IMG/VR virus record: IMGVR_UViG_2778261619_000010
Location: 1 to 21,065 of that record
Source: a virus
Taxonomy: Duplodnaviria > Heunggongvirae > Uroviricota > Caudoviricetes
Strand: one strand, 5' to 3'
Length of the DNA: 21,065 nucleotides
The position numbers and the translations under genes are program-made. Each line of letters begins with the position of its first letter. Within the stretch, counting starts at the first letter, position 1. Below, in pieces: positions 11,832-12,762 of the stretch. The notes under the pieces were generated by a model. It did not search any database. It saw only the letters and a list, made by a program, of their open reading frames with translations, and was not told where the DNA came from.

Positions 11832-11909
11832 ATGATTCGAATGACACTTGCCGATTACGCCAAAACCCGAAGAACATCCTCGACGATACCTATCAGCGAT
11901 TCGTCGTAA
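11832..11909 (+). pseudogene. cro: cro 5' remnant (first ~12 codons Cro-like, then unrelated sequence)
   Basis: GGAG 8 nt upstream of ATG. MIRMTLADYAKT resembles the lambda Cro N-terminus MEQRITLKDYAM; the remaining 13 codons are unrelated and end at a stop, consistent with a deletion junction near 11866-11870. Confidence 0.4.
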
Positions 11910-12631
11910 ATCCTCCTGATGATATTTGTCTGCTGACGGTGAACTACACCGACAACCCGCACTTTCCTGAAGTTCTCCGTCTGGAGATGGAAGAGTGCAA
12001 ACGCAGAAATCCGACACTGTATCGTCACATCTGGCTTGGTGAGCCAGTAAGCGCAAGTGATATGGCAATCATCAAACGTGAATGGCTTGAAGCCGCAACC
12101 GATGCGCACAAGAAACTCGGATGGAAAGCGAAAGGCGCTGTTGTCTCTGCGCATGACCCATCAGATACAGGGCCAGATGCTAAAGGTTATGCATCGCGTC
12201 ACGGTTCGGTAGTTAAGCGCATTGCCGAAGGTCTGCTGATGGACATCAATGAAGGTGCTGACTGGGCAACTTCGCTGGCTATTAAAGACGGCGCTGACCA
12301 CTATTTGTGGGATGGTGATGGTGTTGGTGCGGGGCTGCGCAGACAGACAACGGAAGCATTCTCCGGTAAGAAAATCACCGCCACGATGTTCAAGGGCAGC
12401 GAATCGCCATTCGATGAAGATGCACCGTATCAGGCCGGAGCATGGGCTGATGAAGTCGTACAGGGCGACAACGTTCGCACTATTGGCGATATATTCCGCA
12501 ATAAGCGAGCGCAATTCTATTACGTGCTGGCTGACAGGCTGTATCTGACATATCGGGCGGTTGTCCACGGTGAGTATGCAGACCCCGACGACATGCTGAG
12601 TTTCGACAAAGAAGCGATACGGGGCGTGTAG
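11868..12631 (+). pseudogene. phage terminase large subunit, internal/C-terminal fragment joined by deletion to the cro stub
   Basis: Frame-2 ORF with terminase-large-subunit-like character (...YRHIWLGEP..., acidic nuclease-domain-like stretches), lacking the N-terminal ATPase part and any own RBS. Assignment is by pattern only and is uncertain. Confidence 0.4.
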
Positions 12632-12762
12632 GTAACTACATCACTGTTGCTGTTGAATATCAGCAACTGGAGGAAGCGATCAAGCTTAACCAGCTGGAAG
12701 AAATTCTCGCGCCGGTTCGCCAGCGAATCGTTACCGACCTTGAAACAGAGCTTGCTCACTTC

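Follow-up and report, generated by a model that had tools for sequence, protein, structure and literature searches.

A defective Sf6/HK620-type prophage at argW, probably crippled by recent deletions

KplE1, or CPS-53, sits at argW in Escherichia coli K-12. It belongs to a class of relatives of HK620, Sf6 and CUS-3 that carry an IntS/TorI recombination module, and it has had most of its genes deleted and forms no particles (PMC2951348). The module has been described for KplE1, HK620, Sf6 and CUS-3 alike, and the argW/KplE1 attachment (att) core is a sequence of 16 nt, CTGCAGGGGACACCAT (PMC2951348). In prophages of the HK620/Sf6 type the integrase is intS, which is found at the far end of the element (PMC2951348).

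The DNA considered here is an IMG/VR virus record (IMGVR_UViG_2778261619_000010, Caudoviricetes) of 21,065 nucleotides, and the whole of this stretch is called the window. With a probability of roughly 85%, it is the left and middle part of an Sf6/HK620-type, P22-like prophage at argW that was crippled recently and is undergoing neutral decay by deletion. All proteins are 94-100% identical to well-characterised phage proteins. The late block, coat-gp4-gp10-needle-gp14-gp7-gp20-gp16, is in P22-like order and has the family domains to match (PF11651, PF11650, PF11134, PF16532, PF11039, PF25688, PF16928 and PF26808). Gene order is also collinear with the P22-like map of an intact relative, the prophage of E. 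coli JCKP02. If the retained DNA is added to what four deletions removed, with the right end of the related genome E10 as a template, the sum is about 39.7 kb, a normal size for a P22-like genome.

A preliminary description of this DNA, made from the letters alone, had noticed two collinear deletions. Both are real, but the account was incomplete: it missed a deletion in the pL arm and another at torI and the att site of the same element. The four joins, and the gene pieces next to two of them, are as follows.

8126-8128: torI deletion junction, TCC shared; 292 bp lost, namely torI (excision factor) and 7 of the 16 nt of the argW/KplE1 att core
9800-9801: junction J0, TA shared; 5,021-bp deletion of the pL arm (ea genes, anti-RecBCD, erf, kil, cIII)
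11832-11909, plus strand: cro remnant; 11 codons of cro followed by 14 out-of-frame terminase codons and a stop
11864-11865: junction J1, AA shared with both parents in a base-by-base comparison; cro codon 12 to terL codon 146 deleted, about 11.4 kb
11864-12619, plus strand: terminase fragment; residues 147-398 of about 470, without a start codon of its own
12618-12619: junction J2, TA shared; 3,493-bp deletion of the terL 3' end, portal, scaffold and coat codons 1-79
12619-13653, plus strand: coat fragment; codons 80-423, PF11651, first ATG at 12763

Compared with phage genomes by megablast, the region 10500-14500 falls into three abutting blocks. Positions 10500-11865 are 98.6-99.8% identical to the N-cI-cro region of HZ41, HK630, mEpX2 and others; for mEpX2, HK630 and HZ41 the figure up to 11865 is 99.3-99.8%. 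The second block, 11864-12619, is an internal part of the large terminase gene (terL), 96.7% identical to that of phages Huey and CUS-3 and 99.5% identical to terL of the JCKP02 prophage. The third, 12618-14500, corresponds to coat, gp4 and gp10 of HF4s, Gally, Sf6 and HK620, with an identity of 98.8-99.0%.

At J1, 11 codons and 2 nt of cro are kept, slightly less than the “about 12 codons” of the preliminary description, which was right that the gene is cut. The terL sequence enters at nt 439, which is codon 147. The join is out of frame: the cro frame reads MIRMTLADYAK plus 14 foreign residues and stops at 11907-11909, giving a hybrid peptide of 25 aa. A mechanical list of open reading frames contains a long one at 11774-12631. 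This is the terL frame, by chance open back through the operator region to a TTG, and its stop at 12629-12631 is 10 nt past J2. The terminase piece had earlier been placed at 11868-12631; it is indeed terminase-derived, with a true span of 11864-12619, so that those coordinates were off by 4-12 nt. In a search against solved structures it corresponds to residues 147-398 of Sf6 gp2 (PDB 4IDH, E 1.7e-173). That cro is joined to an internal terminase fragment is thus confirmed by both the phage alignments and the structure match.

At J2, terL is left at codon 398 (12619) and an Sf6-type coat gene is entered at nt 237, the third base of codon 79 (12618). The coat piece corresponds to residues 80-423 of Sf6 gp5 in the same kind of search (PDB 7SP4, E 6e-228). 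Together with the base-by-base mapping, this agrees with the earlier statement that the terminase piece runs into a coat gene without its 5' end. J2 is out of frame as well. The coat frame is open from 12574, and the earliest ATG, GTG or TTG in it is the ATG at 12763.

The size of the J1 deletion is taken from the JCKP02 prophage (locus L006, about 8565-20000), and that of J2 from Sf6 (1614-5106). Among the genomes searched, an intact and 100% identical ancestor was not found, which is why these two sizes come from relatives of 96-99.5% identity. The J1 32-mer was not found in the GTDB species representatives, and the J2 32-mer was not found in JGI metagenomes. Both joins are also absent from 5,426 complete E. 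coli genomes, in which no place covers at least 80% of the query.

The same prophage is present in four clone-mates, E10, DETEC-P829, F8 and LR882057, at 99.95-100% identity where sequence is shared, and with different deletions. In the three genomes compared for their locus, E10, DETEC-P829 and LR882057, it is found at the same chromosomal site, argW, next to the same adjoining island. The chromosomal flanks of these three differ by 0-1 SNP per roughly 10.5 kb. J0, J1 and J2 are found in none of the four.

E10 is 99.98% identical to the window over 1-9801, and 100% identical over 9800-10009, 16141-16700 and 19933-21065. It lacks N through the 5' end of the needle gene, and gp14 through the 5' half of gp16. 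What is left between N and the 3' half of gp16 is a 560-bp needle/gp14 island (locus L007 30925-31495), and the two deletions around it have overlaps of 4 bp and 2 bp. Overlaps this small indicate that short-homology deletion recurs in this prophage.

In a genome search, DETEC-P829 and F8 match the window from the J2 base only, over 12618-21065 at 100.0%. Compared directly, DETEC-P829 has 2 mismatches in 8,448 bp (99.98%). Its match starts exactly at J2 base 12618, and its coat gene is complete; this means that J2 is a deletion within the coat gene of the same prophage. In DETEC-P829 the coat gene is preceded by a 3' fragment of the scaffold gene fused to a transposase remnant, and everything to the left of the scaffold 3' end is missing. 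In LR882057, an IS3-family element abuts the coat gene at the position of window 13186.

In the window, no direct repeats that could explain homologous deletion were found at the junctions beyond the 2-3 shared bases, and no IS element is present at any of the four deletion joins. The joins would have arisen by illegitimate end-joining or by replication slippage.

Two other accounts of the junctions have to be weighed. One is that they come from mis-joined short-read contigs; the source is a draft assembly after all, and its contig ends in an IS. The sequence across J0, J1 and J2 is nevertheless 100% identical in the NCBI assembly GCA_002233105.1 and in the independent Logan assembly of SRR3957202. 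The truncated coat product is found in contig NLTW01000048.1 (33.7 kb) and in Logan SRR3957202 (6 and 5 samples). Two independent assemblies, covering 11 samples, therefore carry these joins, which have no repeats and share only 2 bp, and an artefact is extremely unlikely. The other account is a patchwork, made by illegitimate recombination between resident prophages, of a lambdoid immunity region, the terminase of another element and an Sf6-like late region. It would explain why the best phage matches vary by segment: mEpX2 and HK630, both siphoviruses, for N-cI-cro, JCKP02, Huey and CUS-3 for terL, and HF4s, Gally, Sf6 and HK620 from coat onward. Mosaicism is however normal among lambdoid and P22-like phages, and according to annotation notes HK620 has the same type of cI and cro. 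In addition, all pieces are in P22-like order and orientation, E10 carries this ea and N region in linkage with these needle and gp16 genes, all at 100% identity, and retained and deleted lengths sum to one genome. A patchwork is very unlikely on this evidence, and deletion within a single prophage is the reading followed below.

As a side note on the contig end, the source sequence passes into an IS2-like terminus, TGGATTTGCCCCTATATTTCCAGACAC..., at 113 bp past the gp16 stop, still within the 3' part of arc (locus L004 18417-18493), after which the contig ends. This IS2-like family also interrupts the tailspike gene in DETEC-P829 and LR882057.

The oldest of the four deletions is the one at torI. 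It was sized against O26:H11 strain 11368 (locus L010 13030-13320), and E10 has it too, which makes it older than the others. What remains of the att core is only GGACACCAT at 8121-8129, and torI is gone; the full core and torI are both found in O26 11368 and JCKP02. An IntS/TorI module would show the 16-nt core at the prophage end with torI adjoining. With torI lost and the core damaged, the window has no excisable module of the KplE1 type. The intS gene is next to argW at the far end in the clone-mates E10, DETEC-P829 and LR882057, at a locus outside the window. Decay began with the loss of torI and part of the att core, which locked the prophage in the chromosome, a loss that E10 shares. 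Three more deletions then followed in the source lineage, each at 2 shared bases: the pL arm lost 5.0 kb, the stretch from cro to terL about 11.4 kb, and that from terL to coat 3.5 kb.

A tRNA gene as attachment site within the window was looked for with ARAGORN, which finds none, and Rfam has no family in the window. The 30-mer at 8121-8150 does resemble a tRNA 3' end on the minus strand (reverse complement TTGCAGGTTCGATTCCCTATTCGGACACCA). No tRNA gene is encoded here; the 30-mer is a chimera produced by the torI deletion, through which 9 nt of the argW att core came to adjoin a 16-nt copy of the argW T-arm. This T-arm copy is found just upstream of the torI start codon in intact relatives.

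J0 was recognised because E10 has 5,021 bp (locus L007 25704-30724) that are absent from the window. The junction clips the C-terminus of a 59-aa reading frame (9799-9978) downstream of N, which matches positions 1-56 of the 71 of phrog_5305. Beyond it begins the immunity and antitermination module.

9982-10254, minus strand: N antiterminator; 90 aa, PF25694 N_peptide, phrog_271
10355-10402, minus strand: nutL, with boxA GCTCTTTAA and boxB hairpin CCCGCCGAAATGCGGG; intact, identical to the annotated mEpX2 nutL
10623-10991, minus strand: membrane protein similar to HK620 p19; 122 aa, between pL and cI, phrog_6534, mEpX2 annotation
11009-11725, minus strand: CI repressor; 238 aa, helix-turn-helix PF01381 and self-cleaving S24 domain PF00717 (match 1-116 of 116)
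11726-11831: OR/pRM/pR region; operators ATACC-N3-(G)GTAT (repeat family D1)

For nutL, only the boxA coordinates (10385-10402) are computed; the low end at 10355 is approximate and was read from the sequence. No nutR counterpart was found in the window, as it was lost with the J1 deletion. CI has a full helix-turn-helix and a full Peptidase_S24 domain, with Ala-Gly at 117-118, GDSM at 153 and IAKL at 185. Retention of a cleavable-type CI and of N, proposed from the start, is borne out by these motifs and domains and by the N_peptide match. A candidate pR, TTGATT-17-TATTCT, was read by eye; the promoter scan did not report that site. Positions 11726-11865, which comprise OR/pR and the first cro codons, are identical to the functional phage mEpX2 at 140 of 140 positions.

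Of the parts of a lambdoid module, cI, OR, N and nutL are whole here; of cro only 11 codons are left, and nutR has been lost. The immunity part, consisting of CI, OL/OR, N, nutL and perhaps the 122-aa membrane protein, looks functional. A host with this element would then probably be immune to phages that have the HK620, mEpX2 or HK630 type of immunity.

The late genes beyond the coat fragment, with the terminator ahead of them, are as follows.

13658-13675, plus strand: t-coat, intrinsic terminator; 7-bp stem with 5 G-C pairs and a U tract, downstream of coat and ahead of gp4
13856-14338, plus strand: gp4, head completion; full length, full-profile match to PF11650
14347-15765, plus strand: gp10, head completion; full length, full-profile match to PF11134
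15765-16613, plus strand: tail needle with Sf6-type knob; PF16532, knob domain profile fully covered
16613-17068, plus strand: gp14-like protein; PF11039
17071-17763, plus strand: gp7 ejection protein; full length, PF25688 over the whole profile
17773-19068, plus strand: gp20 ejection protein; full length, Pfam match (PF25688, PF16928 and PF26808 cover gp7-gp20-gp16)
19068-21065, plus strand: gp16 ejection protein; full length

The reading frames of gp4, gp10, needle, gp14, gp7, gp20 and gp16 have the lengths of the Sf6 genes. With the Pfam coverage, this supports the earlier claim that gp4, gp10, the needle and the three ejection proteins are intact. Gene calls on the 33.7-kb contig include none for O, P, nin, Q, lysis, small terminase, portal or scaffold. 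As had been proposed, the genes for replication, nin, Q and lysis and those from packaging to scaffold are therefore gone, and it also stands that the element cannot form particles. It is not a complete inducible genome, since those genes are absent and only fragments of terL and coat are left. What remains of cro, terminase and coat is presumably dead.

Whether the intact genes can be expressed is another matter. The preliminary description regarded pR as fused to them, with possible read-through after SOS. This is not supported. Q and pR' were lost with the J1 deletion, and with nutR lost too, N cannot make pR transcripts resistant to terminators, even though nutL is intact. Between the 25-codon hybrid peptide and the coat-frame ATG, about 850 nt (11910-12762) are untranslated. 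As is known from transcriptional polarity in E. coli, long untranslated RNA invites Rho-dependent termination, and this stretch is a likely Rho target. After it comes t-coat, still ahead of gp4. The records of Sf6, HK620 and HF4s annotate this terminator too, and its 61-nt context folds at -17.3 kcal/mol. A promoter scan for internal late promoters found four weak 9/12 matches, against a shuffle mean of 7.0, and none upstream of gp4.

It follows that gp4-gp16 would be silent in the lysogen, where CI holds pR off. They would remain largely silent after SOS too, given no antitermination, about 850 nt of untranslated RNA and then the coat terminator.

An obvious check for selection is dN/dS, suggested from the start and run here against phages. 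For the intact late genes, compared with Sf6 and JCKP02, it is 0.02-0.37. For the dead terL fragment it is no higher, at 0.04 and 0.00 against phages, so dN/dS is uninformative on selection. The values reflect the phage past and not the present of the remnant. Within the clone, the window and two clone-mates differ by 3 SNPs over about 8 kb, 2 nonsynonymous and 1 synonymous (coat F to L, gp7 W to R, and gp14 synonymous). With 3 SNPs in about 8 kb, too little time has elapsed for measurable selection.

The earlier functional reading has the head-completion, needle and ejection genes under pR, expressed when SOS leads to CI cleavage, and kept by selection because they serve the host, for example by excluding incoming P22-like phages or through effects on the envelope. 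There is something to be said for it: OR/pR matches a functional phage perfectly, CI has its complete S24 domain, all seven late genes are full length, and with cro gone a derepressed pR would not be shut off again by Cro. In addition, gp4-gp16 is intact in three of the four decay states of the clone. Against this stand the deletion of nutR, Q and pR', two out-of-frame junctions that leave the long untranslated stretch before the coat ATG, and t-coat ahead of gp4. Retention by selection fares no better. In E10 the needle gene is missing its 5' part and gp16 one half, and most of gp14 is gone together with gp7 and gp20; the SNPs number only 3, of which 2 are nonsynonymous; and a dead terL piece has an equally low dN/dS. 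This makes the functional reading very unlikely. A related idea keeps only the usefulness: the block might be a reservoir that rescues or diversifies superinfecting P22-like phages, or ejection and needle proteins, made at low level or after SOS, might hinder DNA delivery by incoming phages. That usefulness is why the block is kept in three of four states is likewise very unlikely. Such retention could hint at keeping, but deletions coming from the IS-rich island side explain it equally well. Under neutral deletional decay, gp4-gp16 would be intact only because the deletions are very recent. Their intactness is what recent deletion alone predicts, so no further explanation is needed. The surviving virus-structure genes are most likely silent leftovers and not a new system.

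The left part of the window is not prophage. The integrase gene at 6755-7972 was considered as the prophage's own and rejected, as it is beyond the att core and belongs to the neighbouring island. Also on that island are a papB-like gene, an IS600-like element with a frameshift and a gene for an HsdR-N protein. The integrase gene is on the minus strand, directly downstream of the prophage pL operon and in the same orientation. With torI and much of the att core deleted, N-antiterminated pL transcription after SOS could enter it. In O26:H11 11368 this gene is a pseudogene.

Between the papB-like gene (5334-5489, minus strand) and the island integrase are 1.27 kb of very AT-rich DNA (5490-6755). 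The sole reading frame of at least 40 aa in it is 5753-5875 (40 aa), and no tRNA or Rfam family was found there. It is conserved at 99.8-100% in the matches listed, for example E10 and O26 genomes. The window part 4100-8200 is covered to at least 80% in 232 E. coli genomes, and for part 1-4100 the number is 233. The IS600-like element (IS3 family) at 4198-5337 has its orfB split by a frameshift into reading frames of 126 aa and 231 aa, and RefSeq has its equivalent in E10 and O26 as a frameshifted pseudogene. Among the cargo at 1-4021 is a protein of 786 aa whose N-terminal domain is that of HsdR. Upstream of it, E10 encodes a TerB-domain protein, an ATP-binding protein and a DEAD/DEAH helicase. 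This cargo is possibly a defence gene cluster.

By itself the element matters little: it is textbook prophage inactivation by deletion, at the very site where K-12 has its remnant. The set of clone-mates is perhaps of more use. With at least 8 deletion or IS events and no more than 0-3 SNPs, it would be a natural time-series of how a prophage decays in one clone, and an unusually clean one. One clonal group with at least four deletion states and almost no substitutions shows that, early in the decay of a prophage, deletions at 2-3 bp of homology, and those associated with IS elements, run ahead of base substitution. The case also warns that intact-looking late genes with low dN/dS against phages are not evidence of domestication.

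The element resembles KplE1 in that both are of the same phage class, use the same attachment site, lost genes by deletion and form no particles. KplE1 however keeps intS, torI and both att cores and still excises, whereas the element here lost torI and part of the core. Conversely, KplE1 is without a CI module and is not SOS-inducible, while CI, N, nutL and 8.4 kb of late genes are kept here. Sf6, HK620, HF4s and Gally (Lederbergvirus) are the closest phages, with coat-gp10 DNA of 98.8-99.0% identity and an identical order from coat to gp16; the Sf6-type needle knob, t-coat and the HK620-type immunity region are present too. Compared to these phages, the element lacks about 20 kb, made up of torI, the recombination genes of the pL arm, the stretch from cro to terL codon 146, and that from terL codon 399 to coat codon 79. 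Nothing was found that would place it with satellites (PICI, P4-like) or domesticated particle systems (tailocin, GTA): genes for primase or replication, terS, portal, scaffold and lysis are all absent, and the only structural genes retained whole are those for head completion, needle and ejection. The element is a rare further case of a known kind, a defective prophage of the Sf6/HK620 class at argW.
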